The position numbers were made by a program, and so were the translations under genes. A model generated the notes under the pieces. It saw nothing but the letters and a program-made list of their open reading frames with translations. It ran no database searches and had not been told where the DNA came from. DNA of 45,057 nucleotides, the filler included, from Jimgerdemannia flammicorona (Eukaryota), in the NCBI GenBank assembly GCA_003990765.1. It is 2 parts of 2 records of this genome, joined end to end, with 100 filler letters (N's around TTAATTAATTAA, not from the genome) between each part and the next. Parts side by side here need not be neighbours in the genome. Positions count along the whole stretch, not along the records: positions 1 to 22,480 come from RBNJ01001270.1; 1 more part is not named here. The stretch is one strand, 5' to 3'. Of the stretch, positions 724 to 44,804 are shown piece after piece (position 1 is the stretch's first letter; every line of letters begins with the position of its first letter).

Positions 724-835
724 AATTATGCACAGGAAACAAAATTTGGTGGCGACAGCAACATCCCCACCAATCTTATCCCAGCACCTCGCCATCACCA
801 TCGATATACCAAGATGTCTGTTCACAAATAACCAA

Positions 836-1981
836 TTACGCCAAGTCAGTGTCACCTTCGGCGCGACCATCTGCAGAAACTTGTAGACTTCCTCGTAGAC
901 CGTGAATGCGGGGGGGGAAATGATAATAGCGTGGCGGGAAAAATCGTTGTTTGCCTCTCGGTAAATGAAATCACGGCCATAAACTAGCTTGCCTCAACTT
1001 ACAATCAACCTGGCCAATCTCGGCGTGGCGCCTTTCCAAAGCGCGAGCACGCCATCCTTCCTCGAGACCTTTACCACGCAATCAAAGCTATTCTTATACA
1101 ATTTTTGGCGTCGAGCGCCTGCATCTTTGTCTTGATGACATTGAGGGGGCATAGTGGTATACGCGGTGACGATGCCTGCCACGCCGCCGACAGCGAAGGC
1201 AGCCCATGATGGGAGCGGGTCGTCCGGCCTTGCGCGGAGGTGCTGCACCTGAGTCTTGAGAGCGCATCATGACGGAGAACAGGCCCCGGTAGATTCCGCC
1301 TAAGCCTTCAGCACGGACAATAGCCGTGCTATTTAAGGTTCGGCGTGTATTAGTTTGGTTCTGGTGTCGAGTGGGAGCCGTTGGGTGATCGCTATCGGGG
1401 AAATAGTCTTCACACTTGCTCTCGACCATAAACTCCAAACTTACTTTGTCGTCTCTGGCGGCGTGACAATCAGCGTAGCCTCCGTCATATCCGCTCCTAA
1501 CCACCCAAGCACGCTCCTCGTGCCGATGAGCTTGCCGTAGTCGTCGCGGAGGGCCTGTGCGAATTTGTCGTAGGCAAGGAAGCGGATGGCAATGGCGAGG
1601 GCGGACACGTCGCAGTGGAGGGCGAAGATTCCCAGGGTGCGGACGGTGTGTGAGGAGGTCGATCGGGCCTTTGAAGCGCGGCTGGAGGGTTGGGGGGTGA
1701 AAGAAGTTAATTGCGCTTGCGAAGGTCAGATTCCTATATTATAAATGGGGATAATATTGGCGCCTTACCGCCTGTACAGCAGCCAACTTGTCTCCTTCCA
1801 GCTGTAACATCGTCTTGATGTACTCGGTCAGGTAGGTTAGGCGTCGTCCACTCCACAAGAAGGCGGGGTTCTTCTTGTCCTTCGTCTGCAGGTTATGACG
1901 AAACAAGTTTCAACAGACTGGAAGCGTCTTGAGAGGATCAGATGCGAAGGCACCAAGACGAGTCATAACCTTGTCAGACAT
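836..1981 (-). pseudogene. CTP1: Mitochondrial citrate carrier pseudogene (copy D)
   Basis: Collinear with the intact gene at 18633-20000 including introns. Multiple internal deletions and frameshifts; fragments such as ALWKGATPRLARLI are retained. Confidence 0.9.
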
Positions 1982-2351
1982 GTTCAGTAGGCCGCTCAAG
2001 GTGGTATGGACGAGAGGGGGATGAAGAGAGTAGTGTGTCCTGGTGGTTTGATTGCTCGTCGGAGAGTTTTATCTAATCATCAGTCACAATGCACCGTAAA
2101 ACCATATATCAAATTCCCAGGCAACCCAAATGTTCCAAAATTAATCATAAAAGTTTGGACAATACATAACTTCGCACCAATAACATATAATATATACTGA
2201 AGATGACATAAGAGTGACATAGGGCATATTTTAACTTAATGTCAGGAACTTAATGTAAACGAGTGCTGATGGGTGTTCTGATGTACGGATAGGTCATAAA
2301 TACTGGTGGGTTTACGTATTGGCTCAATTCTAGAAAAAAGCGGTAACTAAA

Positions 2352-3167
2352 TCACATATCCAACCCAAAAAAATACATTGGAGTGCTGCTTGTCACAAGT
2401 AAATGAGTTTCGCTGGGGTAGTCTGTGCCATATCCCTCCAATTGAAATTCCGAAATTTGAGGTGGCAGCACGTTTTCCTGGATACTCATCGGATAGTTTT
2501 CCTGGAGGCGGGAGTCGTTAAGGGTTGTGACGTCCACTGCAGGGGCGAGGTCGGTTTCGTCAAAGTTAACGAGGTCGTCAAGTTCATACAGTGTCTGGAT
2601 GATAGTAGTGTTGTTCTCCGCAGAAAATTGGTTGCACATATACTCGGTAGCTGTGTGATAGTTATCCTTCGAGAAACAAGGTTCGCTACGCTTACCACAA
2701 CGATGGCAAGGAGCGCCCGAGCATCGCTTTTTGTGCAAATGGCATTTGGCGCACGCCGTTCCCGGTGCCTTTCTCTTGGATTTATTTATGCAGGCGTGAA
2801 GGTGGCATCGCTTTTTTCTTTTCGAACAATCAGCGCATTGCTTGTACGGGGTGTACGCCGGCGACTGTTGTGGCATGGGGTTGGTGCTAGATAGGTGCGG
2901 CGAAGAATCTTGATTGTCAACGAACGCATCCAAAATGTTTTGCGAAGGATTTGAGGTGTTTCTTTCGATTTCGCCGACGATCGGGGGTCCACTGGCGTGG
3001 GTTTCTGTCCATAGGTGAGCCAGGAGATGATCCATGAGGTTGAAGATCAATGAGCAATTTGGATAGGGGCAGCGGAGATAAGAGACGTTTGGATGGATTT
3101 GGTTTTGAATCAGAAAACGTGACTGAAGGCGTTGAGGAGGCCTTGGAAAAATGGGTCGGTAAGTCAT
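2352..3167 (-). CDS. Intronless zinc-finger transcription factor, 271 aa: C2H2 finger + CxxCx6CxxH module + Zn2Cys6-like cluster
   Basis: CPYPNCSLIFNLMDHLLAHLWTETH (C2H2), CADCSKRKKRCHLH, ACAKCHLHKKRCSGAPCHRCGKRSEPC, acidic C-terminus. TATA-like TATAAA about 50 bp upstream. Confidence 0.85.
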   Translation of the reverse strand: MTYRPIFPRPPQRLQSRFLIQNQIHPNVSYLRCPYPNCSLIFNLMDHLLAHLWTETHASGPPIVGEIERNTSNPSQNILDAFVDNQDSSPHLSSTNPMPQQSPAYTPYKQCADCSKRKKRCHLHACINKSKRKAPGTACAKCHLHKKRCSGAPCHRCGKRSEPCFSKDNYHTATEYMCNQFSAENNTTIIQTLYELDDLVNFDETDLAPAVDVTTLNDSRLQENYPMSIQENVLPPQISEFQLEGYGTDYPSETHLLVTSSTPMYFFGLDM

Positions 3168-3347
3168 TTTTATGATTTGTTCTTGTTCGTGCTTTTGGAA
3201 TGTGGCAACATGGTTACTTTATACATGGTCGAGTGATTTGAATTTCGAATTTTTGCCGCTTTATTCTTATTCCCACCCTCATGCTGTGTTCGATTCGTTC
3301 AACCCTGTATCACGGCAATTGTATTGGCTAATGCTTTAAACCCTCGC

Positions 3348-3408
3348 CGGAACCGCACAACTTCAACGTAATGAAGAATCGATGCGATGATATAACGTGA
3401 CGGTCCCG
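3348..3408. promoter_or_regulatory. Two CGG-N2-CCG inverted triplets upstream of the zinc TF; candidate zinc-cluster binding sites next to a CCAAT box
   Basis: CGGAACCG at 3348-3355 and CGGTCCCG at 3401-3408; ATTGG at about 3323. The motif recurs upstream of every TF copy. Confidence 0.4.
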
Positions 3409-4311: not shown

Positions 4312-4590
4312 TCAAGAGTGCCTATTGTGCGTTGGCGCCATCCCACCGAGGTGTGACGAAGAGCCTTGATTCATAGCGAGCGCATCCGAAGTGTTTTCCA
4401 AAGGATTTGAGATGTTTCTTTCGATTTCGCCGACGATCCGGGGTCCACCGGCGTGGATTTCCGTGCAGAGGTTTGGGCAATTTGGGTAGGGGCAGGGGAG
4501 GCAAGAGACGTTGGGATGGATTTGGTTTTGAATCAGAAAGCGTGGTTGGAGATCTTGAGGGGGCCTTGGCAGAATAGAGCGGTAAGTCAT
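4312..4590 (-). pseudogene. Truncated 5' fragment of the zinc TF gene with its promoter
   Basis: MTYRSILPRPPQDLQPRFLIQNQIHPNVSCLPCPYPNCPN aligns to the N-terminus of 2352-3167. The C2H2 finger is internally deleted and the cluster domains are absent. Confidence 0.85.
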
Positions 4591-5515
4591 GATTTTTTCA
4601 TGTTTTTGAAATGTGGTGACACCGGTTCCTTTTATACATAGTTCAGTTACTCGAATCTCCTCCATTTCGAATCACTTCCATACCCCTCGTCCCGCGTTCG
4701 ATTCGTTCATCGGCTAACCTCGTCGGAACCGCATAATGTGAACGGGATAGCAGTCACTCGATGGGACATCTCATCTGGGTTTTCGTATGGGACACATCAC
4801 ATCCAGATTTTCATACGGAACACATCCTATCCATCTCATCTCTCATTATATAATTATATATAAATCAAGATGCATAGAATTTAATATCTATGCAGCTGTT
4901 TTGTCGGAGAGATTTGAAAAAGCGCTCGGTTATAGGAGCGATAGGTTGTTGATTTTTTTTTTTTTTTTTTTTATAGGTTGCTTGATTACTGTTAGACGAT
5001 TAGGAAAGACGAAATACTAACATGTGCACAGCAAAATCTGTTTTCCGAATGTTGCGGCGGAGTTAAACCAAGACGGTTTGAGATTATCATGTGAAAATAC
5101 TATCAGACGGTCGTTGGGAATAAGATTTTATTTTCGAAGGTGCTTATATGACGTTTTATCTGTGGATCCAGAGAAAATTGGCACCGACCTGCATGCTTGA
5201 GTACGGAAAGGTTGGCCGAGTAGTACGCCAAAAAAGGGTTCAGGCCAATAATCACGTAATCTACTGATCAGGTCGTCCCCCTCATGTCAATTATATAACA
5301 TGTTATTTTATTACTATTTAAGAGTACACCGTGACTGATCTGTTCGCGTCGGAGGGTGGGTGTATCAAAGCATATTTTTGTATGTATCAAAAAAAGACAA
5401 ATAAAATGCTATGATGCATGTCCAAGACCTAGTGATGACAGCAACATCCTCCAACCTCATCCCAGTACGTCGCCATAATTACCGATATATCAAGAGCCTG
5501 TCCGCAACCAACCCA

Positions 5516-6615
5516 TTATGCCAAGTCAGCGTCTATCCTTGCCACCTTCGGCACGACCATCTGAAGGAATTTGTAGACTTCCTCGAGACTGTGAAGGCGA
5601 TACCGCCGGAGGACTATAATGAGAAGAGAGTTTGTAAGTACGGAGAAAAAAAAATACGATAATAGTGTGGGGGAAAAATATTGTGTCCCTCCCAGCAAAT
5701 GAAATAAAGCTTCCCATCATCGTCCAAGTCACAGACGAGCCCGCCTCAACTTACAATCAACCTGGCCAATCTCGGCCCGACGCCCCCTTTCTCGCGACCT
5801 TTATCACGCAATCAAAGCTATTCTTGTACAAATTTTAGCGTCGACCGCCTGAATCTTTGTCTTGACGACGTCGAGAGACAGTGGTATACACGGTGACGAT
5901 ACCAACAGCGAAGGCAGCCCAGGATCGTCCGGCCTTGCGCGGGGGCGCGGTGCCTTTGTCTTGAAGGTGGAGTAGACAAAAAAGCGGACGGCGGAGTTGG
6001 TATCCTGGCGTATCATGACGGGGGGCCGCGATATTGAAAATAGTCCTCACACTTTCGACACCCACTCCAACACGGCGCTCGACCATAACCTCCACACTCA
6101 CTTTATTGTCTCTGACGGCGTGACAATCAGTGCAACCTCCGTCATACCCGCTCCTAACGCCACAAGCACGCTTCTCGCGTCGCTGAGCTTGCCCTGGTCG
6201 TCGCAGAGGGCCTGTGCGAATTGGTCGTAGGCAAGGAAGCGGACGGCGCTCTTCCAATGACGAAGGCGGACATGCCACGGTAGATGGCGAAGATTTCCTG
6301 AGTGCGGACGGTGTGCGTGAGGTGGCCGATCGGGCGGCTGAGGTTCGGGGTGGAAGTAAGTTAGGTGCACTTGCAAAGGTCAGGTTTCTATGACATAATG
6401 GGATATAATCGATGCCTTGCCGCCAGTACGATGGCCAGCTTGTTTCTTTACAGCTGCAACCTCTTTTTGTATTCGGTAAGGTAGGTTATGGCGCCCTCCA
6501 CGCCGCCAGTGATGAGAGATAAGGTAGAGTTCTTCTTATCGTCCTTCGTCTGCGGTTACGACGAACAACAGACTGGAAGCTTTCTTGAGAGGGACAGATG
6601 CAAAGGGTCATAACC
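5516..6615 (-). pseudogene. CTP1: Mitochondrial citrate carrier pseudogene (copy C)
   Basis: Collinear with 18633-20000. The start-codon exon is deleted and there are several internal deletions and frameshifts. Confidence 0.9.
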
Positions 6616-6884
6616 TGTTCAGTGAGACTGTACGCAGAGTGACTTGATTGATCGACGGAGAGTTTATTCAATAACCAGTGTAATTACCGAAATAAATTAA
6701 ATGTCATAAAAGATTGGACATCGAACCAAATAAACTTGATATAACATATGCTGAAGATGGCATATTAAAAATAATAGAAAATCTATAAGAGTGGCATAGG
6801 GCATATTTTAGCTTGGTGCCAGGAACTCAACGTAGTCGAGTGCTGATAGTGGGTTTGCATTTGCTCAATTACAAAATAGCAGGA

Positions 6885-7490
6885 ATATCCAAAAAAATAC
6901 ATCGGAGTGCTACACATCCCTCCAATAGAAATTCCGAAATTTGAGCGGCACGTTTTCCTGGAAGCGGGAGTTAAGGGTTGTGACGTCCACTACAGGGGTC
7001 GGTTTCGTCAAATTTGACTAGGTCGTCAAGTCCATACACTATTTGGATGATAGTGTTATTGTCCTCCGCAGAAAATTTTTGCACAGATGCTCGGTAGCCG
7101 TATGATGGTTATCCTTCAAGAAACAAGGTTTGCCACGTCTGCCACAGCGATAACAAGGAACTCCCGAGCATCACTTTTCGTTCAAATGGCATTTGCAACA
7201 CGCCGTTCCGGGTGTTTTCCTCTTGGATTTGTTTAATAAAGCATGAAGGCATCGCTTCTTTCTTTTCGAACAATCAGCGCACTGCTTGTACGGGGTGTAT
7301 TCCGACAACTGTTGTGGCATGGGGTTGGTGCTGGATAGATGCGACGAAGAACCTTCGATTTTGCCGACGGTCAGGGGTCCACTGACGTAGTTTTCCGTGC
7401 CAGGAGAGTCCATGAGGCTGAAGATTATTGGGCAATTTGGGTGCAGCGGAGGTAAGAGATTTTGGAGAATGTGACTGGAGATCTTTTTAT
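6885..7490 (-). pseudogene. Zinc TF pseudogene (copy B)
   Basis: YKQCADCSKRKKRCLH and TACCKCHLNEK followed by a premature TGA (CGA in intact copies). N-terminus largely deleted. Confidence 0.85.
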
Positions 7491-8159
7491 ACATGGTCGA
7501 GTGATTCGAATTCTGCCATTTTATCTTATCCCCACCCTCATTCTGTATTCGATTCGTTAGACCTTGTATCGCGGCAATTGTATTGGCTAATACATTAAAC
7601 CCTCGCCGGAACCGCACAACTCCCAACGTAATTGAAAGGATTGACGTGATGATAACTCCGAACGGACTATACACTATAGCCGGTTCGGAAATTGGTACTT
7701 GTTGACGCCGGATCGGCCCCCCCCCTTTTTTTTGGACAAAGTACGAGGCTTGTGTGCTTATTTCCGGGTTGTGTATACATGTTTCTGAGGTGCGCCATTA
7801 TCGCGCGAATTTTATGACCACGTGCCATTTTACCCGTAAGGGCAGTATAGTCTGAAAAATTCGAAAGTGAGAGTTCGCAGCGAAAGTGACATTCCAGGTT
7901 GTATATATATACATATTTTAAAATCTGTTTTCCGCACACTATCAGCACCACAATGCACTATGTTACGGCGCCAAAATGTTCGGAAAGGAGTCAAACCAGG
8001 ACAGTGTGTGATTGTAAAGGACAATACGATTCGTTGGGAATTAGAGTCGCCAATGGCGTGATCCAGAAAAAATCAATTAAAAGTTCTGGCTGAGTAGTAT
8101 CACCTGTGCCAACAATCCGAATCTGACGTCACCAATTTGTTTTCGCGGCAACATCGCCA

Positions 8160-8287
8160 GTATCTTAGTTGGGAATACGGAGTGGAGGAGAAGAGGAGCG
8201 TTGTTTATTATTCCAGATAGCGCGTCGAGTGACGTAACTCAAAGATGACGTAGTTACATATAAGCCACATTATCGAGATGTAATACA
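8160..8287 (-). repeat. 3' LTR of the copia element (CpG-intact)
   Basis: Direct repeat of 15860-15996; adjacent to the PPT; inner end reads TG on the minus strand. Confidence 0.92.
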
Positions 8288-8822
8288 ATACTCCCGCTCA
8301 ACGAGATAATATGCAATGTAAGCAGGAATGTAATGTAACCAAGCAATAACTGCAAAATGACTGTGAATGTACTAAAAGAATGCTATCTACACATGCTTAA
8401 AACATAAGAAACTATAGTGAAAATGAAGAATGTAGATTGGTCCCAATAGTAGAAAATCTCAAATATAGAAGAAGAAAAAGAAGAAAAATTTAATATAATG
8501 CTTGAAGAGAGAGATATATATTGCAGCTTCCTTTTCATTATCAAATATCTTGTGATTACTCATTGCTGGCATATAGTTCTATTGCTGGTATATAGTTTAC
8601 TATAAGACTTATTTTTTTAGTATATTGCTTAAATTTAGATCTCAAAAGAGCTTTGATAAGTGAATCTGCAATAATATACTCTATGGGAATGTATTTTAAG
8701 TATATAGTTTTATTTTCTATATATTCCCTTATATAATAGTGTTGTATATCAATATGTTTGGTTCTGCTATAATGAATAGAGTTCTTTGCTATAGTAATTA
8801 TAAACTAGTTATCCTAATGAAT

Positions 8823-9342
8823 ATATGTATATCATAGTAGTCTGCCCTGGGGTGGAAGGTTATTGGCAGACCTTGGAGGAACATTGGGGCTCTGAATGAG
8901 GGCAGCCAGGGGATTCCATCAGTATAGTTGCCAGAAGAAAACTGGTGGGAGATATTGGTGATGTGTGGGGTAGTATTGGGCAGATCTTAGGAGTATAGAT
9001 CTTGATAGTATCACACTAGCAGTAGGTCTTTGAGAGTGAAAGCTGGATGGAAATTGGGAATTTGATAGAGCATTGACATTGACTTGTGAGAGAGATAGTG
9101 CAGGAGTGATGGTATCAGAGGAGGTGGCAAGAGGTGGGGATAGTGAAGAAGGTACAAGATATTGTCTTAGAGAATCAGAGTCATTTGGTGCTAGATAAGA
9201 CTAGAATGCAGTGAAAAATTGAGATAAGTTGATAGGTTCTACTAGGTTCAGTAAGTCCTTTGGATATAGTGTGAGTGGTCAAGAGAACTTGTATATTATT
9301 TACTATTCTTATAAACTGGTTAGAATAAAAGAGTCCAAGTGA

Positions 9343-9373
<31 letters not shown>
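8823..9373 (+). mobile_element. 5'-truncated poly(A)-tailed non-LTR retroelement inserted in the copia RNase H
   Basis: 16-bp TSD AGTTATCC(T/A)AATGAAT at 8807-8822 and 9374-9389. AATAAA signal then about 30 A. G-rich body distinct from the flanks. Confidence 0.85.
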
Positions 9374-9377
<4 letters not shown>

Positions 9378-11218
9378 ATCCAAATGAATTGATATAGAGT
9401 ACTATTCCTGATTAAAGCTAAGTTCTTTTAACAGTTAGCATAACCAAATGGCTTCCTTTATTTCTGTAGATAATACTTAATATATACTCTAGTTATATAT
9501 ATAAATAATATTATTACTAAACTCTACTTATGTATTTGCCAGAATATAATCTCTTTATTATTTAATTAAAAGAGATACTCAGTTATAGATTAGTAATTAT
9601 CTAAGTCTTTAGTCCAATCAGCATCACATATATCATATAGATATGTTGTTGTCCTTATCATTATTACCATTGCTCTTACTTAATCTATTAAGAGTAAGTA
9701 TATATGCAGTATACTATTTTCTTGAAGTATTTGAATATATACTTAACTACTGACTAATATATATTATTATAATATAATAAATACTATATTATCTTATTCA
9801 TAATATATAAGATGTCAGATCTTATTTTTAGCATAAGATATATAATAGACTCACTGTTTACTAATAGAGAATATTAGTATAGTTTTTATTATTATTGGTC
9901 TTAAGCTTTCTTAACTTCACTAATGTTTCTATAGAAATACTAACAGACTTATATTTACTCATATTAAAGTATTTAAAAATAGCTTAGATATATATTGACT
10001 GTGAGAGATATATAGTATATATATATACTCTTATTATATATAATAGATATCTTTAAAAGAAAAAATGTATTACCTATGTCTATTATTTTAAATTCTTTAA
10101 ATAGAGCTTTTTTTTGACTTTATTAAACTTACTTTTTATTATAATAATAATAATATCATCTATTTGTATATATATAAATATCACTCTATTGGTATAGTAT
10201 TGAATATATATATAGTTATCTGCTTTATAGTATATGAAACTATTGTTAAGAAGATATTTATTAATTTCTCTATTTTACAAATAGATTACTTGCTTGATAC
10301 TATATAATCCTTTGTATAATTTACATACTAGATCATTATTTTACTCATATTCTTATAGCTGGTAAATATATAACTCTCTGTCTTTATATCTATCTAATAG
10401 ATTTCCAGATTATGTATGGTACTGATTGCAAGAAGTATTCTTAGTAAAGTAAGCTTGAATACTGATAAAAATATCTTATTATAATTTATACTATAATTTT
10501 ATAAATAACCCTTAGTAATAAAATAAGCTTTATATATATTATTCTATACTTCTATTATACTTATACTTAATTTTGTAAACTCAATATAATTTTATAGCTT
10601 GTTAATTAATTAGAAGAAGTATCAGATCTATATACTATTCTTGATAAGTAAATTATACTCTTTATCTATAATATATTACTATTTTTTATTATATATCAGA
10701 AGATATTATTACTTTATTATATATATATTTGGCTTATTAGAAGTTATAATAAATATATATTTATATATATATCTCAGCATAACTCATATAGTCTTTATAT
10801 TACTATTTAGAGTTTGCTAGTATATCTTAATAATTTTCTAAATTAGAATAAGTCTCATTTCTGAGCTTATACTTTAACTTTTCCTTACTCTTAATAGACT
10901 TTTTATTATTATTATTAGTTTTACTATCTTTAATCTCTATTATTCTTGACTTAGATAACTCTAGCTTAGATATATAGAGTGATTGAAAATAATTTTACTT
11001 TATTAAAGAGGTTGGTATTAGATATTATATTTATATTGACTGAGATATAAATGTTAAAGTAGATATTAAAGTAGATATTGAAGTAGAGATTTCAATAGAT
11101 ACATTTATATAAGGTTTTTGATTCTCTTTTTTATTAAACTATATATCATATAAGATTACTATATGATGTTTACATAGATCTTAAAGTTGATATATAAATC
11201 CATAAGCTATCTCTTATG

Positions 11219-11433
11219 TTAATTTGTAAATAAATTTATCTGTAAAAAAAAATTAAATTAAAAGAACTTTTTATTAAAAATTTTATATCAAATATTATGT
11301 CAAAAAATATTTTAAAAATATAATTTTTGAGTTTTATTAAAAAACAAATTTTAAAAATTTTAAATTAAATATTATAATAAATTTTTTTTTTAAAAATATT
11401 AAATTTTTTACAGATAAATTTACTTGTATTTAA
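11219..11433. mobile_element. AT-rich MITE-like element inside the copia
   Basis: TAAATTTATCTGTAAAAAA at 11231-11249 is the reverse complement of TTTTTTACAGATAAATTTA at 11404-11422. TTAA at both outer ends (11219-11222, 11430-11433). Confidence 0.6.
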
Positions 11434-11983
11434 TTATAATATAAGGAATATATATATATATATATATATATTTTTTTTCTCACTATCTTCTAATATTTCT
11501 ATTACTATCAAAAATATTCAGATCTTTCTCAATTAATTCACAATCATAGTGATTTAAATATATACTATTTAAACTAACTTACAAGATAATCTCTCTCTCA
11601 ATAGCTCTCTATTTGAGCTTAAGTTTCTTTAAATACATATAATATCAGTTGAGATCTTTTTGCCTAAGGTAGTAAAGCATATTTGTGTATTGGTAGACTA
11701 TAGAGCAGAGCTGGCAGTAGTTGTACTGATCTTTGTATCATTACTTGAGATACTTATTGAGATTTTAGATATAGACAATAAGGATGACAGCTTGTTCTCT
11801 ATATCTCCTATCTTTCTCTCAAAATATTCCACTGTCTTCTTCATATTCTATACCCCCATAGCTTTGGTACTTATATTCTCAAGCCTTACAATTCTCTTCA
11901 CTATATCAGTCTTTTTCCTCTCTCTCTCTACAGTAAAGTTGTTCTCATTAGTAACCAGTTTGATAATAATCAGATATATATTT

Positions 11984-14900
11984 ATAAATAGAAACTGCTT
12001 CTTTTTTTTATTTTTTTATTTTTTTATTTTATAAACTCAGAGTTCTATAGATTTTATTAGAAGAAAACCTAGACTATATAGGCCAAAACTCTCTCTCACT
12101 ATCTACTAAACATTACTCTCATTAATCTAGACTACTGAATTATTCTGCAATCTCACTATTCTCACTATATATATATCAGATATACTGACTTCTACTATAT
12201 AGACTAGACTTGTCTATTCACTAGAGCTGGATTATTATAACTATATATAAGAGTACCTATATATTAGATCTAGCAATATCAGAACTGAATAAGAAATAGC
12301 CCCCTAAACCCCAAACAAAGGTCTGAGACAAAAAAAAAACCCCTAACTAGCTAACAAAAGACAGAATAAATTTAGAGTAGGTGAGTAAAGTACTTATATA
12401 TAAGATTCCCTCATGAACTGATATATGAACTAAGGCTTAAAAAAGTCTCACTCCCACTCTCCAAGTCTGTAGACCTTAATTATATTACCATGTCAGCTCT
12501 TAGTTCCAGTTAGATATTGCCAAATGAGGGAGATCTTACTTCTCAAGTCTGCAGGCCTTGATTGTATTGCTGCATTGGCTCTCAGTTCTAGTTGGATACA
12601 GCCAAGATACTGGTCTCTATACCACCTCACTCTCTGCCAGTCAATCAAAAGGCTCTACTAAGATAATACCTACCTCAATCCTGATGACCATCACCCTACT
12701 GGTCTACTATTATTACCCTTCCACCTATCTGTAATAGCCATCTCTCCTCTCATCTCAATACTATCTAAAAAGCAGTTACTTATACTAGAACTGTACTCAC
12801 TGAGAAGCTTGCCAAAGCTCAGAGAGCCCAATCACAGGCACTAAGGACTTGCAGGTAACCTATACTGATACTTAATTCCCAAGGTTAGTTAATTCTATAT
12901 ATAGTCTATAATATACCAGATAATACCTTATTGATGATAGCAAAAGGAAGAAAGTACTACATTAAAACAAATATACTCTAGATATAGCTGAAGGTACTAG
13001 AAACTGCAAAAAAGTAGAGAAGATACTAATCTGATATTGATAAAAGAATAACTTATCACTATTGTCTTCCTTCCACCATACCCTTACAGATATAGTAAAT
13101 CAATCCAAGGTAGAGAAGGTAATAATAGAGGAAAGAGGACTCAGAAGGTTGCCTACCAAATCTTATAACTAGTAAGATAGCAGAGAAAGGGGCAGAAACT
13201 ACTCCTTCTTGGTCATAAGGAGATACTATTAGGCAGAGCCTTGGGGTGGGAGTATGGCTGAATCAGTCAGCAGAGTTAGTAAGTAAGTAAGTCAAGGAAA
13301 GTAGATGAGTCAGAGATAATGAGAGAGAGCTTAGAGGCTTGGAGAGCTATAAGAGCTGAGGTATATTTAGCAAGATTATTCTTTTTTATTTACTTAGAGT
13401 GATATTTATCAGGGCCTGAGATAATACTGTGGAAAAAGAAGATATAGAGAGGGTGGGAGACTATTGCATTAAGTAATAACCAGTGATATAGTATATTCAT
13501 TGATATTATAAGCTATATATTATTATTATTAACTATATTAGTATATACTTTGCTTATATTGTCACTTTTTACTGACTCAAAAATATATAGCTTAGATATA
13601 GATATAGATATTTTTTCTAAATACTCAGTATATATTACTTATATATAGAATATGTCTCTATCTTAATTATCATTAGTTTTGATAGTATTTGTATTATATT
13701 ACTCTTTGCTATTATATTTCTTTTCACTGCTCTCATATTACCAATACTGACTTCTATACTTATTTTCATTATTCTTCTTATTTTTATAATAGCAGTCATT
13801 CTACAATACTCATACTTATTACAGTAATGATAGTTTCTATCAAACTTGAATTCATATTTTTGATCTTATTAGTACTTCTTACCTTATTCATATAATCTGT
13901 AAAATACTTTCTCATTATCATCATTACTACTGTTTTTTTTATATATCTCTTTATTGATGAGATTTATTATTATATAGATATAATCTGTAAGTTTTCTACT
14001 TTTATATATAACTACTATTACAATATTATATGTTGCTCCTTTCTTTGCTACCTTACTGGTTACAATAATTTAGTAGGCAATCTTCTGAGTTTACTTCACA
14101 ATTATTACCCCCTCTACCTCAGGTTGGTTTGCTGTACCTATTGCAAGGTAGTGAGAGAGAGGCAATAGTGATGAGTTACCCCTTTATTGGTGTCAGATCA
14201 GTATCTTCTCCACTTTTTTACAGTTTCTAGTACCTTTGGCTACATCTGGAGTACATTCATTTTGGTGCAGTACCTTCTTCCTTTTGCTGTCACCAACAAG
14301 GTGCTGTCTCAGTATATCATAGGCTGTATAGAGAGTTAGCTGACCTTGGGCATCAAGTGCTCAGTGTAGGTTACCTGCAGATCCTCAGTATCTGTGGTGG
14401 GGCCCTCTGGCTTTGGCAAGCTTCCTGGTGAGTGCAGTTCTGGTATAGGTAACTGCTTTTTAGGTGTTGTTAAGATGGGAGAGGGATGGCTATCATAGAT
14501 AAGAGAAAGAGTAATAATAGTGAACCAGTAGGGTGCCAGGCTGGGGGTAGTCATTGGGGCTGGGGTGAGTACTGCTTCAGTGAGACCTTTTGATTGATAC
14601 AGAGCAGTTAGGTGGTAGGTGTCACTCTCAGCTTCTTTTTGTAATTCAGCAGATTGGGCCCCAGTCATTGGGGAGGGTTGGGGGGCCTGAGACTACCTAT
14701 TTCAGGTGTCTTGGCTGCACTCAACTAGAACCAGGAGCTGATATAGCAATGTAATTGAGGCCTACAGACTTGAGTAGTAGGGTATTGAGAGTCTCCTCCT
14801 ACCTCATGTATAAGTCCTTTACTTATCTTGACTTAGAGAACCAGGTCCTACCCACTATAATATACTTTGATGAGAGTTTTTCTTTATCTGTCATTCTCTT

Positions 14901-15222
14901 TGAGATGGTAGGGGCTATTCTATTCAGCTTGGACATGGCCTTGTACATATGTTGGGGTCTCAGGCATGTACTTTTGGTCATTGGCATATGGCTGGGTTCT
15001 CTCTGATGATAGAGAGAGTATAGTATACAGAATGAGGTATGGACCAACATAGGCCCTACTGTGCCTGATATAATTGAGCTACTGGACAATAGCTAGCCTA
15101 GGTTAATGGGGGAGCAGTGCTTGATAGGTGGTGGGAGAGGGGTTTGACCTATATAGTCTAGGCTCTCTTCTAATAAAAATCTGTAGGATATTGAGTTTGT
15201 TAAAAAAAAAAAAAAAAAAAAA
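11984..15222 (+). mobile_element. 3.2-kb nested insertion in copia gag made of two related poly(A)-tailed elements in head-to-head orientation
   Basis: Poly(A) at 15202-15223 and degenerate poly(T) at 12002-12030. 12030-13200 is an imperfect inverted repeat of 14030-15200. About 11-bp TSD (ATATATATTT 11974-11983 / ATTATATATTT 15223-15233). Removing it restores a gag-like frame (KDKVLVLIKDLSEIYN / LIIIKLVTNENNFTVE). Confidence 0.75.
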
Positions 15223-15859
15223 ATTATATATTTCAGAGAGATCTTTTATAAGAACCAAAACCTTGTCTTTATTGCTGATATACTCTGCTGATATACTTAG
15301 AGAATTTATTTGATTTATCAGATTATTGATATATTTGACATATTTATAGATATTTTCCTTAGACTTTATTCATAGATTGAATAATTGAGATTTCAGATAG
15401 AACTGATTCAATGAGAATGCTTTTATATGATAATTATATAGAGTCTTTCACACATTGTAGACTATTGTAGTATATATTATAAGCTTCATTTACTGATTCA
15501 ATAATATAAAGGCAATCTTTTATAATACTCAGTATTCATTTATAGTATTGTAATCTTGAATCTATACTTACAGTTTCATATACTCTACTAAGCTATACTA
15601 CTTTAGGAGATTGCTCATATAGAATACTCAAATAGCATAATCCTTATCATTAAAGATAGGAATCAACCTCTTGGCTATATTTATGCTAGCCACAGGAACT
15701 GTGACCATCATACCCATTCTGGGGATATCTGTATCTGCTGTGGCTGATACATTTGTGCTAGCTCCTTGATTCATCAGTTGTGACATCTTGATATAGAGTA
15801 GTATATACTCTTAGAGAGGTGTTTCTTACTAGCTGCTAAGCAGGGCTCATAACCTTTAT

Positions 15860-15996
15860 TGTATCTTAGTTTGGAATATGGAGTGGAGGAGAAGAGGAGC
15901 ATTGTTTATTATTCCAGATAGCACATATTTATGCATTGAGTGACATACCTCAAAGATGATGTAGTTACATATAAGCCACATTATTGAGATGTAATA
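15860..15996 (-). repeat. 5' LTR of the copia element (CpG-erased)
   Basis: Direct repeat of 8160-8287; followed on the minus strand by PBS GGTTATGAGCCC (15843-15854). Confidence 0.92.
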
Positions 15997-16118
15997 ATGA
16001 GAATTTCAATAGTATGTTTTTTTATTTTTCATCTTTGCCAGCCAATATTATATCTTTATTATCTTTAATGAGCCCAGAACGTACTTCTCTTAGCTTTTAT
16101 CCGATTTCTCCTCGCCCG

Positions 16119-16611
16119 ACACGGCTTTCGACCATAACCTCCACACTCAATTTATCGTCTCTGACGGCGTAACAATTAGCGCAGCCTCCGTCATACCCGC
16201 TCCTAACCCTGCAAGTACGATCCTCGCGCCGCTGAGTTTTCCCTGAGCGTCGCGGAGGTCCTGTGCGGCAAGGAAGCGGACGGCGCTCTTCCAATGACGA
16301 GGGCGGACAGATGAAGATTTCCTAGGTGCGGAGGAGGTCGATTGGGCGGCTGAGGTTGGGAGATGGAAGTAAGTCAAGTGCACTTGCGGAGGTCAGGTTT
16401 CTATGACATAATGGATGCCCTACCGCCTGTACGGCGGCCAGCTTGCCTCTTTACAGCTGCAACCTCGCCTTTATGTATTCGGTCGGGTAGGTTATGGCGC
16501 CCTCCACGCCACCGGCGGTGACGCCGGCAATGGGAGAGAAGGCATGGTTCTTCTTGTCCTTCATCTGCAACAGACTGAAAGCATCTTTACGAAAGGCAGT
16601 AAGTCAGACAT
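16119..16611 (-). pseudogene. CTP1: Mitochondrial citrate carrier pseudogene, 5' half only (copy B)
   Basis: GKLSGARIVLAGLGAGMTEAALIVTPSETIN is retained. Homology stops in intron 3, about 120 bp from the copia LTR. Confidence 0.88.
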
Positions 16612-16945
16612 GTTTAGTAGGCCGAGAGGGGAAGAAGAGAGTAGTGACTTGATTGATCGGAGAATTTTATCTAATCATCAATTCAAACAATAACCGACTG
16701 TGATCGCGTGATTGGGCCAGGGGTCAACCACAAATGTTCAATAAAATTAAATATCATGAGAGATTGGATAATACATACTGAAGATGACGAATTAAAAGTT
16801 ATACAAGTGGCATATGGCATATTTTAGCTTAGTGTCAGGAACTCAATGTAATTGAGTGCTGATAGATGTTCTGATGTATGGATAGATCATAAATGCTAAT
16901 GGGTTTATGCATTGGCTCAATTCTAGAAAAAAAACGGTAACTAAA

Positions 16946-17730
16946 TCACATATCTAATCCAAAAAAATACGTCGGAGTGTTGCTTGTCACAAGTAACTGA
17001 GCTTCGCTACGGTAGTCTGTGCCATATCCCTCCAATAGAAATTCCGAAATTTGGGGTGGCAACACGTTTTCCTGGATACCTATCGGATAGTTTTCCTGGA
17101 GGCGGGAGTCGTTAAGAGTTGTGGCGTCCACTGCGGTTTCGCCGGGGTTAGCGAGGTCGTCAAGTTCATATAGTGTTTGGAAGATAGTGTTGTTCCCCGC
17201 AGAAAATTGATTGCACATATACTCGGTAGCTGTATGACAGCTATCCTCCGAGAAACAAGGTTCTCCACGCTTGCCACAGCGATAGCAATGAGCGCCCGAG
17301 CATCGCTTTTTGTGCAAATGGCATTTGGCGCACGCCGTTCCCGGTGCCTTTCTCTTGGATTTGTTTATGCAGGCGTGAAGGTGGCATCGCTTTTTTCTTT
17401 TCGAACAATCAGCGCACTGCTTGTACGGGGTGTACGCCGGCGACTGTTGTGGCATGGGGTTGGTGCTGGATAGGTGCGGTAAAGAGTCTTGATTCACAGC
17501 GAAGTGTTTTGCGAATAATTTGTGTTTCTTTCGATTTCGTTGACGATCGGGGGTCCACTGGCGTGAGTTTCCGTGCAGAGGTGAACCAGGAGAGGGTCCA
17601 TGAGGCTGAAGGACGTTGGGCAATTTGGGTAGGGGCAGCGGAGGTAAGCGACGTTCGGATGAATTTGGGTTTGCATTGGAGAACGTGGCTGGAAATGTTG
17701 AGGCCTTGGAAGAATGGAGCGGTAAGTCAT
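16946..17730 (-). pseudogene. Zinc TF copy A, frameshifted
   Basis: Closely similar to 2352-3167, but a net ~10-bp deletion near 17495-17510 splits it into a 78-aa N-terminal frame (17494-17730) and a C-terminal cluster frame. Confidence 0.8.
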
Positions 17731-18632
17731 TTTGAATAGTTTGTTTTTTGAATTGTGGCGACATGGTTACTTTTATACATTCCCGCCTACATGCTGCGTT
17801 CAATTCGTTCCATCCTGTATCACGGCAATTGTATTGGCCAAGGCTTTAAACCCTCGCCGGAACCGCGCAACTTCAACGTAGTAAATAATTAATTCATCAC
17901 AGCAGTCACCAAAAACCAAATTAGTGTGACAGTATCAGACGTCGTCGGTCGTGTGATGCCTGAAACCAAGGACCTAGGCCATTTCGGGCGACTGGCTCCC
18001 CCGTCAAATTCGTCAAATCCGACAATGTATTCAGCATATAGGTCGAACCTCATATCTCTCATTCCCAACGACCGTCTGATCGTATTGGCCTATATCACAC
18101 CAAATCCCAAACTGACACTCCTCCGAATATTTTTGCGCCGCAACATAGTGCGTCGTAACAGTAGTCAAGCGATCCGCCACTGTTGTCAATATCCATCAGG
18201 TCGCGCGCCACGTTGATTACGTCAGAATCTCGCGACAAAGTATCCGACGAATACCATGTTATATGACATAGTAAACTTTTGGATAGGATTTTCATCATTA
18301 CTTAAAAGTTAAGCAGCGTACACTGCAAATCAGAATACAATTTTGCTGGTGATGGAATGCGACTGTTCTGTTCGCGTGTATACCTGATGGTAACTAGTTC
18401 GAAATGCGGGGTGACGGAACAGGTTTCAGAACGCGTCGTCTGAAGTATATTACTTATGGTCGCGAACGAAAACATATGCACAGGAAAAAAAGATTTTGTA
18501 TATACCAAAGAAAATAGATAAAATGCTATGCCCATGTACCAGAATGGCCCCAAAATTTGGTGACGAGAGTATCTCATCCTAGTACGTCGCCGTCATTATC
18601 GATATATCAAGAGCCTGTCCGCAACCAACCAA

Positions 18633-20000
18633 TTACGCCAAGTCAGCGTCTATCCTTGCCACCTTCGGCGCGACCATCTGCAGGAACTTGTAGACTTCCT
18701 CGTAGACCGTGAAGGCGATACCGCCGGAGAACTGTAGTGGGAAGGGAGTTTTATAAGTGCGGAGAAAAAATACGATAATAGTGTGGGAGGAATATCATTG
18801 TGTGTCTCCCGGCAAATGAAATAAAGCTTCTCATCATCGCCCAAGTCACGGCCACAAACGAACCCGCCTCAACTTACAATCAACCTGGCCAATCTCGGTG
18901 TGGCGCCTTTCCAAAGCGCGAGCACGCCATCCTTCCTCGCGACCTTTACCACGCAATCAAAACTATTATTGTACGAAGTTTTGGCGTCGAGCGCCTGCAT
19001 CTTTGTCTTGACGACGTCGAGGGGCATAGTGGTGTACACGGTGACGATGCCTGCCACGCCGCCGACAGCGAAGGTAGCCCATGAGGGGAGCGGGTCATCC
19101 GGCCTTGCGCGGAAGCGCTGCACCTGCGTCTTGAGGGTGGAGTAGACAGAAAAGCGGACGGCGGAGTTGGCACCCTGGCGCATCATGACGGGGAACAGGC
19201 CCCGGTAGATTCCGCCTAGGCCTTCAGCACGGACGATGGTCGTGACGCCGTGAATCAAGCCGCGATATTTGGGGTTAGGCGTGTTTTGGTCGTGGATTAG
19301 TTTAGTTCTGGTGTCAGGTGGGTTTAATACGGGTTGGTCTACGTTGATCACTATCGGGAAAATAATCCTCACACTTTCGACACCGACTACAACACGGCGC
19401 TTGAACACAATCTCCACACTCACTTTATCGTCTCTGACGGTGTGACAATCAGCGCAGCTTCCGTCATACCCGCTCCTAACCCCGCAAGCACGCTCCTCGC
19501 GCCGCTGAGCTTGCCCTGATCGTCGCGGAGGGCCTGTGCGAATTGGTCGTAGGCAAGGAAGCGGACAGCTCCTTTAATGGTGTTTCCGATGACGAGGGCG
19601 GACATGCCACGGTAGATGGCGAAGATTCCCTGGGTGCGAACGGTGTGCATGAGGAGGTCGATCGGGCCTTTGAAGCGCGGCTGGGATTGGGGGGTGGAAG
19701 CAAGTTAAGTGCACTTGCGAAGGTCAGGTTTCTAAGACATAATGGATACAACCGATGCCTTACCGCCTGCCCGGCGGCCAGCTTGCCTCCTTCCAGCTGC
19801 AACCTCGTCTTGATGTATTCGGTCGGGTAGGTCATGGCGCCTTCCACGCCACCGGCGGTGGCGCCGGCGATGAGAGAGAAGGCAGGGTTCTTCTTGCTCT
19901 TCGTCTGCGGGTTACGACGAAACACGTTTCAACAGGCTGGAAGCGTCTTGAGAGGGACAGATGCAAAGGCATCAAGACGAGTCATAACCTTGTCAGACAT
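18633..20000 (-). CDS. CTP1: Mitochondrial citrate/tricarboxylate carrier (SLC25), 312 aa, 5 exons
   Basis: Exons 20000-19989, 19904-19764, 19680-19424, 19307-18878 and 18731-18633 with GT-AG introns give an open frame. Three carrier motifs (PTEYIKTR, PSETIKTK, PLDVVKTK), plus RQGANSAVRF and KGATPRLARLIFSGGIAFTVYE typical of fungal Ctp1. Confidence 0.93.
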
Positions 20001-21254
20001 GCTCAGTGGGCCGTTCGCAAGGTGGTGGTATGGAAAAGAGGGGATGAAGAGAGTAGCGTGTCTTGGTTGTCTTAGTGACTTGAGATCCAATCCATCTCGT
20101 CGGAGAGTTTTATCCAATAGGACTTTCTCCAGGTGACTGTTGCATCAGCAAACAGCCAAATATGGGGCTCTTATGTCAGCGTAAGCGATATAACATAATG
20201 CTTGGGTGGTGCGGCGCTGCCTACAACACCCTCACAAAAAAATTCGCCATTGACAAAGACTGCATGATTCATTTTGTGCGCCTGTGATAAATTCCGCGAA
20301 CATTATTATGCGAGAGTCCTAAATAGAATCGGCCAACTCGATCGACCCATGCGGACTCCGTATTTATCCTGACTCTCGAGCATGCTTCTCTCGCTTCCCG
20401 CCTGCGCCATCTCCGCCTCAGCGAAAACGCGGCAGGTGTCTGGTCGAGGCCTGCGTTCGAGATAGACAATTCCTGGCATTGCTGGCGATAATTGCGGTCG
20501 GCTGCGGAACGTGACAAGGTGTTTATTATTTGCGCGGAGCCGAACAGGTCCAACCCACAATTGATTAATGCGTGATGCTTTGTAATAGTTGTCCGCTCGA
20601 GCTCCACCAATACTAAATAAAAATGTATGTACCGATACACGTGGATCATGGCAAAGAAGGTACTGGAAGTGATTTGCTGCGGATATCAATGTTCGCCTGC
20701 ATCCGCGGAAGAGTGTCCAGCTTTTTGCATCCGGCGATCATTAGCTTCACGTGCCTGTGCATGTGATTGATTGTCCGCCGCAAAGCCTCCTTGCTGGGCG
20801 CCTAATTCTGACGTAAGCCAACGAATTGAGTCAAAATCCTTGTCAGCAGCGTATTGGAGGAGGAAATGTTGTTCGCTATTATTCCCTTGCCATGTGGCGT
20901 TGCTTTCATACATGAGAGGAGATTTGAAAATAAAATAAACGGATGCAACTGGAAGGCGTTTGACCAACCTGCAAGATTTGGACGAAATGACAAAGCGTAT
21001 GAGGGTTGGTTTTATCTTTGAAATACTGTAAACCAGGCAACGCTCCTTTAAAAAATTCCCTCTTCAAAGAAATTTATCCAAAACATGAACGTAATACAAA
21101 AATGCCACATGCGAAATCGTGACACCCAAGGCAATATCTGTAGTAGTTTAAATATTAGAGTGACACCAATAATGTTTCAACTCTAAGTAGGGGAGGAAAA
21201 ACAATCCATATCGAGCGCCAAAGCGGTTAAGTCAATTTAATAGAAATAAACAAG

Positions 21255-22166
21255 CTAGAGGTGAGGATCGCTTGAGCCGAAGTCATCGCCGGAACTGACG
21301 TCAGGTAGAGTATAAACCTCGAGGAGCTCAACAGACCGATTGCGAATATTCTGGTTGTCATGGTATTTGAGGGCGCGGAGATTCTGTTCGACGTCATGTT
21401 CGTTGACACAACGCAAAAAGGCAAGATAAGAATCCAACCTCTTCTCGTTGACAGCAAAATCGGCAATTTTTCGGAGGTCTACCAGTGCCTTAATGATAGA
21501 CTTGTTGTCAGCGGAGGTTAACTGATTACACCGAGACTTGATGAGAGCCTCAATGTTATCACAGTTGACACAAATTTGTCGTCTTTCATTGCAGCGGTTA
21601 CAAGGTGCACCCGAGCATCGTTTTTGGTCTATTTTGCACCCAATACACGCCTTTCCCGGTGAGGCTCGTTTTTCCGTGTTGATGGCGGCGACACGGTGTA
21701 GGCGACATCGTCTCTTTCTCCTGAAGCAGTCTGGGCATTGGTTATACTGCGGAGGCTTGGGTATGAAAGCGAATGCGGTCGGCGGTTGCGGAGCGACGTT
21801 GATGACCGAAGGATTCAGGAAAGGCGGTCGACTGACAAGGTGTTCTGCGATTGTTGGCGAGGGGCCTGATAGGCTCCCAAGTATTACTCCGTCGTTTGGA
21901 GTAATGCTGTCGTTGAATGCCGGGGTTGTGAGAGCTTGTGGATTAGGTGAGTTTTCATTTTGTATGCCGCTTTTCTGTGCGATGCTGGTGTGGGCGTCTG
22001 AGATCTTATGATGTCCAAGGATGTCCAGATTACTGAAAATCGACGGACACATAGGAAAGGGACAGCGGAACAAAGGGGGGCTGAGATGAATTTGCGATGG
22101 TAGTTCTTGAGGCCTCGGCAGGATGTTTTGATAGCGCATTTCGTGCGCTCTGTTGCTTGTTTTCAT
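21255..22166 (-). CDS. Diverged paralog of the zinc TF, 303 aa, intronless
   Basis: RYQNILPRP, CPFPMCPSIFSNLDILGHHKISDAH (C2H2), CPDCFRRKRRCRLH, ACIGCKIDQKRCSGAPCNRCNERRQIC and CNQ..A.N..II..L shared with 2352-3167. Confidence 0.85.
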   Translation of the reverse strand: MKTSNRAHEMRYQNILPRPQELPSQIHLSPPLFRCPFPMCPSIFSNLDILGHHKISDAHTSIAQKSGIQNENSPNPQALTTPAFNDSITPNDGVILGSLSGPSPTIAEHLVSRPPFLNPSVINVAPQPPTAFAFIPKPPQYNQCPDCFRRKRRCRLHRVAAINTEKRASPGKACIGCKIDQKRCSGAPCNRCNERRQICVNCDNIEALIKSRCNQLTSADNKSIIKALVDLRKIADFAVNEKRLDSYLAFLRCVNEHDVEQNLRALKYHDNQNIRNRSVELLEVYTLPDVSSGDDFGSSDPHL

Positions 22167-22480
22167 TTTTCGAGAAGGGAAGTTGGGTTAACCAATTTAT
22201 TTAAAGATCTGTCATATATATGAAAAAGTGGCGGTCCCGACTGGTTGGCATTAAAATTTAAGGCGGACCCGATCACGAGATGATGGGGTAATCCAAGGGG
22301 TTTTTTGTTTACGAGCCTCCCGACTTCCGCAACCATATCCTAATTCGATCAAATGTCGACTGCGGAATTTGGTTTCTGTGACCGCGCGGTTACGCTTGAC
22401 GAAAAGCAGCTTTTGCATCGCTGGCTATCGTCGGATCGAATTGGTACGCGAAGTAACCACCTTGGGAAGATAGTGCGGGG

Positions 22481-22580
22481 NNNNNNNNNNNNNNNNNNNN
22501 NNNNNNNNNNNNNNNNNNNNNNNNTTAATTAATTAANNNNNNNNNNNNNNNNNNNNNNNNNNNNNNNNNNNNNNNNNNNN
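22481..22580. other. Assembly gap with artificial spacer
   Basis: N runs flanking TTAATTAATTAA, which gives stops in all six frames. Confidence 0.9.
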
Positions 22581-23157: not shown

Positions 23158-23191
<34 letters not shown>

Positions 23192-33418: not shown

Positions 33419-34224
33419 TCAAAGCTTCCCAGCCTTGACCGCCGTCATGCACAGCCCAATGGCAGCCACATAATCACCATTAGCCCGATCCAGATATGAC
33501 TTGAGCGTCTCCCTATCAACATGCGGCAGCACGGCGCACAGATCGTTCAGCCCCTTGTCCAACGTTGATTTCATGACCTTCTTCGCCCTGGCGGAAGTGC
33601 TCGTGCTAGCGTTGAGGCTCACGCTGGCGGGTCTCGACGATTTACCACTGGTGGAAGAGGTCGAGGTAGTGGAGGTCGAGCTGGAGGGAGAAAGAGCGCT
33701 CTGCGAGCCGGCCTTGGGAGGTGAGGACGAGGGCGTGCGCCTGGATGTACTAGGTCGCTGGGTGGTCGAGGACGGGGGCGAGAGTGTGGGTTTGGCAGAC
33801 TTGGGGACGGCCTTACCGTTGGGCGAGGTAGGGACGTCATTGGCAGATTTCTCCTCAGTGGATGAGGTCAAGGTCTCGGATTCCTTCGGAGCAGGGGCTG
33901 TCACCTTAGGTGTCTTTGGCGGAAGCCTGATGGTCGTGGCCGTCATCGGCTTTTTGTGAGAGTTCGAGGTCGAGGCGGTCGTCGCCTTCGGCGGCCCCCT
34001 AGTCTTGGACGTGGCCGGTGTCGTCGTTATCTTCGGCGGCGGTGTCGTCGTCGCCGTTGCCGTCTTCGGCGGAATCGTCGCCGTCTTCGGCAGCGGCGGC
34101 GTCGTCGTCTTCGGCGTCGATGTTGTCGTCTTCGGCGTCGACGTTGTCGTCTTCGGCGTCGACGTTGTCGTCTTTGGCGTTGACGTTGTCGTCTTCGGCG
34201 GCGGCGTCGTCGTCTTCGGCGGCG

Positions 34225-34263
<39 letters not shown>

Positions 34264-36043: not shown

Positions 36044-36661
36044 TATATCCTGTTGTGTCCTCTGCTGGGTGTCGGTGCCATCGTGCAGTGAGGTGACGGA
36101 CGCCGGTGCCGAATTCTGCCGCGATGACGCCAATCCGTTGTGTGCCTCGAACGCGTTGGTGCTCTGGCTCTTGCTCCGCTCGTGACCGTCTGGCAGCCGA
36201 GTGCCTGGACGCAGGGGCTGATCGATGTGGGCGTAGGGTTTTGGTTTCTCTGAGGGTGACGAGTGTGCTCTGCGGAAAGAAGGGTTTTTTGTGCGCAGGT
36301 TCTTGATGTGCTGGTCGGTAGCCGTGTCTTCCTCGGGAAGGTGGTGCTCGGCGGAGAGCTTGGAGGGGCCGAGAATAGGTGAGAGGGAGATCTGTGATGC
36401 GCGCTTGTTGGATTTGGCGACCTCGTTCGAATCCTGCGAACTGCGTGACCGGGCGGGCGAGGGCGCGCCGAATGAGTCGCGTGACCAAGCATCCTCCGAG
36501 TCCGATTTCGAGCCGATGCGTTTGTGACCTGAACTGGCGAGACGGGCGGACTTGGCGGGGCGGAAGAGGGGCCGTTTATGGTGGAAAACCCTTGTGTTTG
36601 GTTTGTATTCTACAAGGAAAAGAAAAAAAAAGAAAAAAAAGTATTATAAACCTTTGTTTCG

Positions 36662-36694
<33 letters not shown>

Positions 36695-36732
36695 AAAATT
36701 AAAAAAAAAAAAAAAAAAAAAAAATAAAAAAA

Positions 36733-36772
<40 letters not shown>

Positions 36773-36773
36773 A

Positions 36774-36809
<36 letters not shown>

Positions 36810-44752: not shown

Positions 44753-44804
<52 letters not shown>

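Follow-up and report, generated by a model that had tools for sequence, protein, structure and literature searches.

Our analysis of a 45,057-nt stretch of DNA from Jimgerdemannia flammicorona (assembly GCA_003990765.1; the window, hereafter, is this whole stretch, of which positions 1–22,480 come from record RBNJ01001270.1) reveals that the two long terminal repeats (LTRs) of what appears to be a degenerate Ty1/copia-type retrotransposon have opposite CpG contents. The left LTR contains eight CpGs and the right LTR contains none, and the right LTR lies in a sharply bounded 7.8-kb block that is devoid of CpGs. A repeat search of positions 6000–18000 returned a single direct repeat pair bounding the element, namely 8160–8285 (126 nt) and 15861–15996 (136 nt), both assigned to the minus strand. 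The two copies were aligned with MAFFT and their differences were counted position by position. Because the pol and gag remnants between them are found on the minus strand, the right copy is the 5′ LTR and the left copy is the 3′ LTR.

The CpGs of the left LTR are located at 8178, 8199, 8221, 8223, 8226, 8233, 8249, and 8274. Seven of them are aligned with a transition in the other copy (C>T at 8178, 8226, 8249, and 8274; G>A at 8200, 8224, and 8234), and the eighth, at 8221, straddles the junction of a 10-bp indel, where pairing GCGCG with GCACA brings the count of converted sites to 8 of 8. The remaining differences are two transversions (8171 G/T and 8237 A/C) and the indel itself, which leaves the left LTR 10 bp shorter than its partner. 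An initial annotation of this DNA had described all eight CpGs as converted in one LTR only, on both strands, with two transversions and a 10-bp deletion as the only other changes. Computational alignment of the LTRs bears out each of these points, the eighth conversion being counted in that annotation's own alignment and the strand distribution being 4 C>T and 3 G>A.

The contrast in CpG content between the LTRs is real and goes beyond chance. No transition was found at any of the 36 C/G sites outside CpGs, nor at any of the 74 A/T sites, and the comparison of CpG sites (8/8) with other C/G sites (0/36) gives p = 5.6e-9 by Fisher's test, or p = 2e-7 if only 7 of the 8 CpGs are counted. The same test applied to CpGs lost in the left (0/8) and right (8/8) LTRs gives p = 1.6e-4. 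Outside CpG sites, the LTRs are 98% identical, with two transversions and no transitions in 118 sites. From the LTRs alone, CpGs have changed at a rate at least ~44 times that of the background (8/8 losses vs 2 changes in 118 sites), a figure obtained by dividing the 95% lower bound of CpG loss by the 95% upper bound of background change; the same calculation with the two background changes as observed yields a ratio of ~137. Five of the seven aligned changes occurred in an ApCpG context and two in TpCpG, and none of the 11 CpA/TpG sites of the pair changed. C>T changes alternate with G>A changes in the right copy, without strand runs (products, four TpG and three CpA), which suggests that many independent events would fit this LTR better than a single processive one. 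The pattern is thus specific to CpGs, present on both strands, and restricted to one copy.

The direction of change, from CpG to TpG or CpA, is well supported by the layout of the indel. The extra 10 bp of the right LTR are bordered by CACA and TGCA, each of which is CGCG with one transition per CpG. At the same position the left LTR has a single CGCG, as expected from a slippage deletion between intact CGCG repeats. Since that single CGCG fits slippage between two intact repeats, the left LTR would represent the ancestral CpG state, and the structure suggests that the ancestral LTR carried 10 CpGs. It also supports the proposal of the initial annotation that the LTR pair polarizes the change. 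As long as the LTRs have a common ancestry at the family level, they can soundly be read as a before/after record of CpG decay. At 8230–8252, the spared LTR includes two TGACGT motifs, which we take to be CRE/bZIP-like (CRE, cyclic AMP response element); both are destroyed in the decayed LTR at 15941–15963, where they now read TGACAT and TGATGT. The minus strand of the LTR also displays TTATATG, presumably TATA-like, and AATAAA, whose usual meaning we likewise assume.

Loss of CpGs extends well beyond the right LTR. From the CpG at 8302, the next one is not met until 16080, a gap of 7,778 bp in which ~169 would be expected from base composition. The second-largest interval without a CpG in the window measures only 229 bp, and the observed/expected (o/e) CpG ratio is 0.93–1.44 in each 1-kb bin outside the block. 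The CpG-free block (8303–16079, without strand; GC 13–48% in sub-blocks) takes in the right LTR and 83 bp past it, and its edges are step-like. The left LTR and 17 bp of the interior fall outside it. These 17 bp (8286–8302, minus strand) contain the final two CpGs left of the block, at 8295 and 8302, and a purine-rich run, GAGCGGGAG, which by position and composition resembles a polypurine tract (PPT); next to the 3′ LTR, this run occupies 8289–8299 (minus). The initial annotation had placed the edge of the affected domain just inside the 3′ LTR. In fact, the edge falls in the interior, 17 bp past this LTR, and the whole 3′ LTR is spared. On the other side, a CpG-free, AT-rich orphan flank (15997–16079, 25% GC, no strand) separates the 5′ LTR from the point at ~16078 where homology to host paralogs resumes, two bases ahead of the first CpG. 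The two LTRs also differ in their surroundings, in that the right one has AT-rich DNA on both sides and the left one abuts host DNA of 45% GC.

The base composition of the block points to more than one process. In its shoulders (8300–9200 and 15200–16080), the index (CpA+TpG)/(ApC+GpT) is 1.26–1.75, matching CpG-only decay. In the core (9200–11000), the index drops to 0.56–0.86 at a GC content of 19–27%, and between 9500 and 11600 the GC content falls as low as 13–21% with an excess of TpA. Given this low core index, the TpA excess, and stop codons in the reverse-transcriptase remnant where homologs have Q or W, a second and slower C>T process probably acted at CpA and CpC in the core and spared the right LTR. 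An inverted repeat inside the block lends itself to a similar comparison. Its left arm (12008–13194, plus strand), which is the more decayed and lies deeper in the island, and its right arm (14034–15223, minus strand) share 78.7% identity over 502 aligned sites and differ by 96 transitions and 11 transversions. Ranked by C-bearing context, these differences run CpA>CpC>CpT, and 66 of the C-bearing differences are on the deeper ~1.2-kb arm vs 30 on the other. The gradient from core to shoulders is in keeping with a domain that is strong at its core and weak at its margins.

The sequence between the LTRs is that of a degenerate element of the Ty1/copia type, as judged from its remnants, on the minus strand and with a mosaic interior. 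The minus-strand order of gag, reverse transcriptase, and RNase H is as for Ty1/copia, and sequences resembling a primer-binding site (PBS) and a PPT are candidates for these sites on the same strand. More specifically, a putative gag remnant at 15216–15504 (minus) matches PF14223 (E 1.9e-4; 21.4 bits against a cut-off of 27), a reverse-transcriptase remnant at 10200–10534 (minus) was recovered from the 19% GC core by tblastn with PF07727-bearing queries (E 1.5e-6 and 1.3e-5), and the C terminus of pol, i.e., the RNase H end, at 8604–8813 (minus) was recovered with P0001 and P0002, which bear PF07727 (E 1e-11 and 8e-11). The reverse-transcriptase remnant has several stops where its homolog has Q or W, and the pol C terminus has one, where the homologs have a Q/R position. 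The PBS-like site (15840–15854, minus) is 5 nt inside the 5′ LTR. On the plus strand we take it to be similar to the anticodon arm of initiator tRNA-Met; the window contains no tRNA gene, and no Rfam match supports the site. Integrase and RVT_2 were not detected in a six-frame Pfam search of the interior with stops read as X, which found only the gag remnant and a fragment of a ribosomal protein, and Pfam gave no usable match for 16 short interior open reading frames (ORFs) and no family for the ORFs of the inverted repeat. The ribosomal fragment (11614–11803, minus) is a decayed pseudogene of uS15 of the bacterial/mitochondrial type (PF00312, E 8.2e-6, 26.3 bits against a cut-off of 31; PDB S15 chains, E 1.1e-6), and it may be a captured or retro-copied piece of a host gene. 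It displays H>Y- and R>C-like changes. No other copy of the LTR was found in the window, and two metagenome scans with LTR patterns gave 0 matches.

We consider it probable that the CpG loss is a methylation-type decay confined to transposon DNA. According to the account that we propose, the degenerate Ty1/copia-type element and the foreign pieces within it would form a transposon island, in which C>T change specific to CpGs would have gone to saturation on both strands, as deamination of 5-methylcytosine (5mC) in a CpG-methylated domain would give. The domain would span 8303–16079 and hold the 5′ LTR, which has lost all 8 to 10 of its ancestral CpGs, and its border would lie 17 bp before the 3′ LTR, where every CpG is kept. 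Deep in the island, a second and slower C>T change would act at CpA and CpC. Finally, the 3′ LTR would escape by virtue of sitting at the GC-normal edge of the island instead of being embedded in AT-rich DNA. We infer cytosine methylation as the cause, and a single insertion as the source of both LTRs. Taken as a whole, with the sparing of the 3′ LTR in place and by position included, the account is a tentative one that we would sooner lean slightly away from than toward.

Several features of the locus weigh against that whole account. First, a target-site duplication is absent: the 4–6 bp beside either choice of LTR ends mismatch, even when C>T and G>A changes are allowed for. Second, at the right junction part of the host DNA is missing. 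Around the element, genes for a mitochondrial carrier and for a putative, Cys-rich transcription factor (TF) are arrayed in tandem, and the third of the four units, to the right of the block, is without a carrier segment of ~600 bp found in units 1, 2, and 4. Because of these two observations, a single undisturbed insertion is not established. Third, both edges of the block are step functions, and slow decay in a chromatin domain should leave partly decayed margins; the right edge, moreover, falls within a few base pairs of the start of host homology and looks bound by sequence or history rather than by position. Fourth, the core has suffered heavy non-CpG damage, as seen in its Q/W stops and in the transitions of the inverted-repeat arms, and the LTR pair has suffered none, so that the island may be made up of pieces of unequal age. 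Lastly, a CpG rate at least 44-fold above background is high for purely spontaneous deamination. Hence, of the positional domain posited in the initial annotation, the sharply bounded CpG-free block around the right LTR stands, and a positional cause for the sparing of the left LTR is not established.

Many of the same features point to a different history for each LTR, which we regard as a substantial possibility, if one that we would expect to prove wrong somewhat sooner than right. A younger, undecayed copy of the family would be the source of the left LTR and of 17 bp or more of the adjacent interior, with the step at 8303 as the junction between old and young DNA. This could have come about by recombination of a young copy near 8160 with an old copy in the carrier gene, deleting what lay between them, or by gene conversion over a short tract, with a young copy elsewhere as donor. 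A single deletion between nearby same-strand copies would explain together the missing duplication, the step-like left edge, and the missing host block, which matches 5437–6066 in unit 2 and whose loss from unit 3 such a deletion predicts. It would also suit the left LTR having lost 0 of 8 CpGs though decay elsewhere is saturating, as well as the rearranged, mosaic interior. The initial annotation had named separate insertions or gene conversion of the left LTR as what would remove the positional interpretation, and our examination of the junctions and interior leaves this alternative in play. Nonetheless, it calls for two insertions of the same family within a few kilobases and for a crossover, or the end of a conversion tract, at a distance of only 17 bp from the LTR, and no donor or second copy was found in the window or in the two metagenome scans. 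The two transversions and zero transitions at the 118 non-CpG sites also count against it, since with such high non-CpG identity the supposedly old LTR is not old by that measure. On balance, the positional reading accounts for the data hardly better than does a left LTR that is younger or recombinant.

An enzymatic mutator triggered by repeats, of the kind seen in repeat-induced point mutation (RIP) or methylation induced premeiotically (MIP) and acting all-or-none in the sexual cycle, seems improbable to us. Here, the left LTR would have escaped at the end of the recognized tract. Such a mutator would account for saturating loss with edges sharp to the base pair and for a CpG rate that, from the LTRs alone, is at least 44 times background, and the transitions of the core and of the inverted-repeat arms follow a RIP-like order (CpA>CpC>CpT). 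Yet a trigger based on homology should treat both LTRs alike, and one of them is untouched; the alternation of C>T and G>A without strand runs suggests many independent hits; and, unlike in classical RIP, there is no CpA change in the LTR. In addition, the part of PMC13297926 available to us describes RID as confined to Ascomycota. As for a chimeric assembly, in which the LTR of a young copy was joined to the interior of an old copy from elsewhere, repeats are the usual sites of mis-joins, but the runs of N lie 6 kb from the block and 14 kb from the 8303 junction and the young and old copies would have to share a long identical stretch just past 8303, an improbable requirement if CpGs are present there in the young one, so we give this explanation very little credence.

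Returning to transposon-confined decay as the favored reading of the CpG loss, the host DNA on either side of the block is undamaged, with a CpG o/e ratio of 0.95–1.4. The four carrier/TF units of the array lie at ~754–3392, 5437–7654, 16116–17889, and 18571–22187. A truncated mitochondrial-carrier paralog in unit 3 (16116–16568, minus) abuts the block and keeps 36 CpGs. Lineage-specific CpG losses number 3 in the carrier block by the island vs 2–4 in the other three units, and spread of the decay into the flanks is ruled out, the CpG losses polarized by the paralogs being alike in all units. The orphan flank was also considered as decayed host DNA, and this was rejected: after collapsing sequences to purines and pyrimidines, its alignment to three paralogs scored 23–27, vs a shuffle mean of 22.8 (sd 2.6). 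The initial annotation had set the spared LTR next to the upstream region of a TF gene. The putative TF paralog of unit 2 (6934–7443, minus), which shares the strand of the spared LTR and lies downstream of it, has in-frame stops, lacks its N-terminal part, and is thus a pseudogene, which weakens the idea of promoter protection by an active TF gene and leaves it without support from this window.

Other observations concern the array and the remainder of the window. The carrier/TF units share 74–85% identity, yet all of them keep a CpG o/e ratio near 1. An extra N-terminal fragment of the TF is present at 4333–4620, and the TF of unit 3 changes frame. Left of the spared LTR, positions 7950–8046 have a 70%-identical inverted copy at 18056–18156, downstream of unit 3 (E 1.8e-10), and at least part of this flank therefore belongs to the gene array. 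A 1,074-codon open frame, rich in Pro/Thr/Ser repeats, occupies 33419–36643 on the minus strand (65% GC; CpG o/e of at most 1.44); opposite-strand and shifted frames are also open there. An F-box ORF in the window has just two matches, both to J. flammicorona, with identities of 39% and 32%. Two 44-N runs (22481–22524 and 22537–22580) are found beside an A/T homopolymer, and A/T runs of at least 30 were recorded at 594–624, 9345–9374, 23161–23190, 36662–36807, 41411–41449, and 44742–44801.

If the LTRs do share one insertion, the process that erases CpGs does not recognize sequence as such, since an identical copy 7.7 kb away was left untouched. It would instead work within a sharply bounded domain and far faster than ordinary mutation, which would argue against a homology-triggered mechanism of the RIP/MIP type and for an inherited methylation domain. 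In that event, comparing LTR pairs by their distance to island edges would offer a simple genome-wide assay. A broader postulate is that an Endogonales-type fungus marks its transposon islands by an epigenetically inherited CpG-methylation domain with borders sharp to the base pair and not set by homology, such that identical LTRs 7.7 kb apart meet opposite fates, all CpGs within the domain converting at no less than ~40 times the background rate and none converting 17 bp outside. We deem this rather unlikely on present evidence. Were it true, LTR pairs at island edges would serve as a genome-wide ruler of domain borders and of the mutation rate of 5mC per site, in fungi whose main DNA mark is believed to be N6-methyladenine (6mA). 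A single rearranged locus cannot yet carry mechanistic weight of this kind.

C>T decay confined to transposons is a known phenomenon in fungi, and the one-sided LTR loss described here is a single, rearranged example. Our literature search returned no account of CpG decay in Endogonales or of one-sided LTR decay. The available portions of two sources provide the setting: in early-diverging fungi 6mA is dominant, with DNMT5 in some Mucoromycota and RID in Ascomycota only (PMC13297926), and genomes of the Endogonales type are very repeat-rich (PMC10386755). General background on RIP and MIP is given in PMC7928374, as far as the part at hand extends.

The closest parallel is the decay of CpG-methylated transposons by 5mC deamination in fungi, of the Basidiomycota type or as in Zymoseptoria tritici. 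Here as there, C>T change is confined to transposon DNA, affects both strands, and leaves neighboring genes untouched, and in the LTR pair its main target is CpG. At this locus, the loss is total over 7.8 kb, the edges are step-like, and the host is an Endogonales-like fungus of the Mucoromycotina, for which our searches returned no report of such decay, whereas the Z. tritici effect, which the portion of PMC8016269 available links to Dim2, occurs at CpA. In basidiomycetes, an excess of CpG and a TpCpG hypermutation of repeats in Pucciniomycotina are described in the accessible part of PMC3318451. As far as that account goes, what is shared is repeat-associated C>T change centered on CpG, but the Pucciniomycotina process needs a 5′ T, and five of the seven changes here are at ApCpG and only two at TpCpG. 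RIP of Neurospora crassa and other Ascomycota likewise leaves transposons riddled with C>T changes, and the core of the island resembles its products in CpA preference, TpA excess, and Q/W stops. The LTR pair does not, in that change there is limited to CpGs, only one copy was hit, and the CpA/TpG sites are intact (0 of 11 changed). Finally, the state of the two LTRs recalls the 5′-LTR-selective CpG methylation of integrated proviruses of HTLV-1 and HIV-1, as reported in the available part of PMC1617119. In those proviruses, identical LTRs are found in opposite states and it is the 5′ LTR that is methylated, just as it is the 5′ LTR that has decayed here. From what that part of the source conveys, the proviral state is somatic, epigenetic, and measured in mammalian cells, whereas the pattern in J. 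flammicorona would be a germline mutational scar of methylation.

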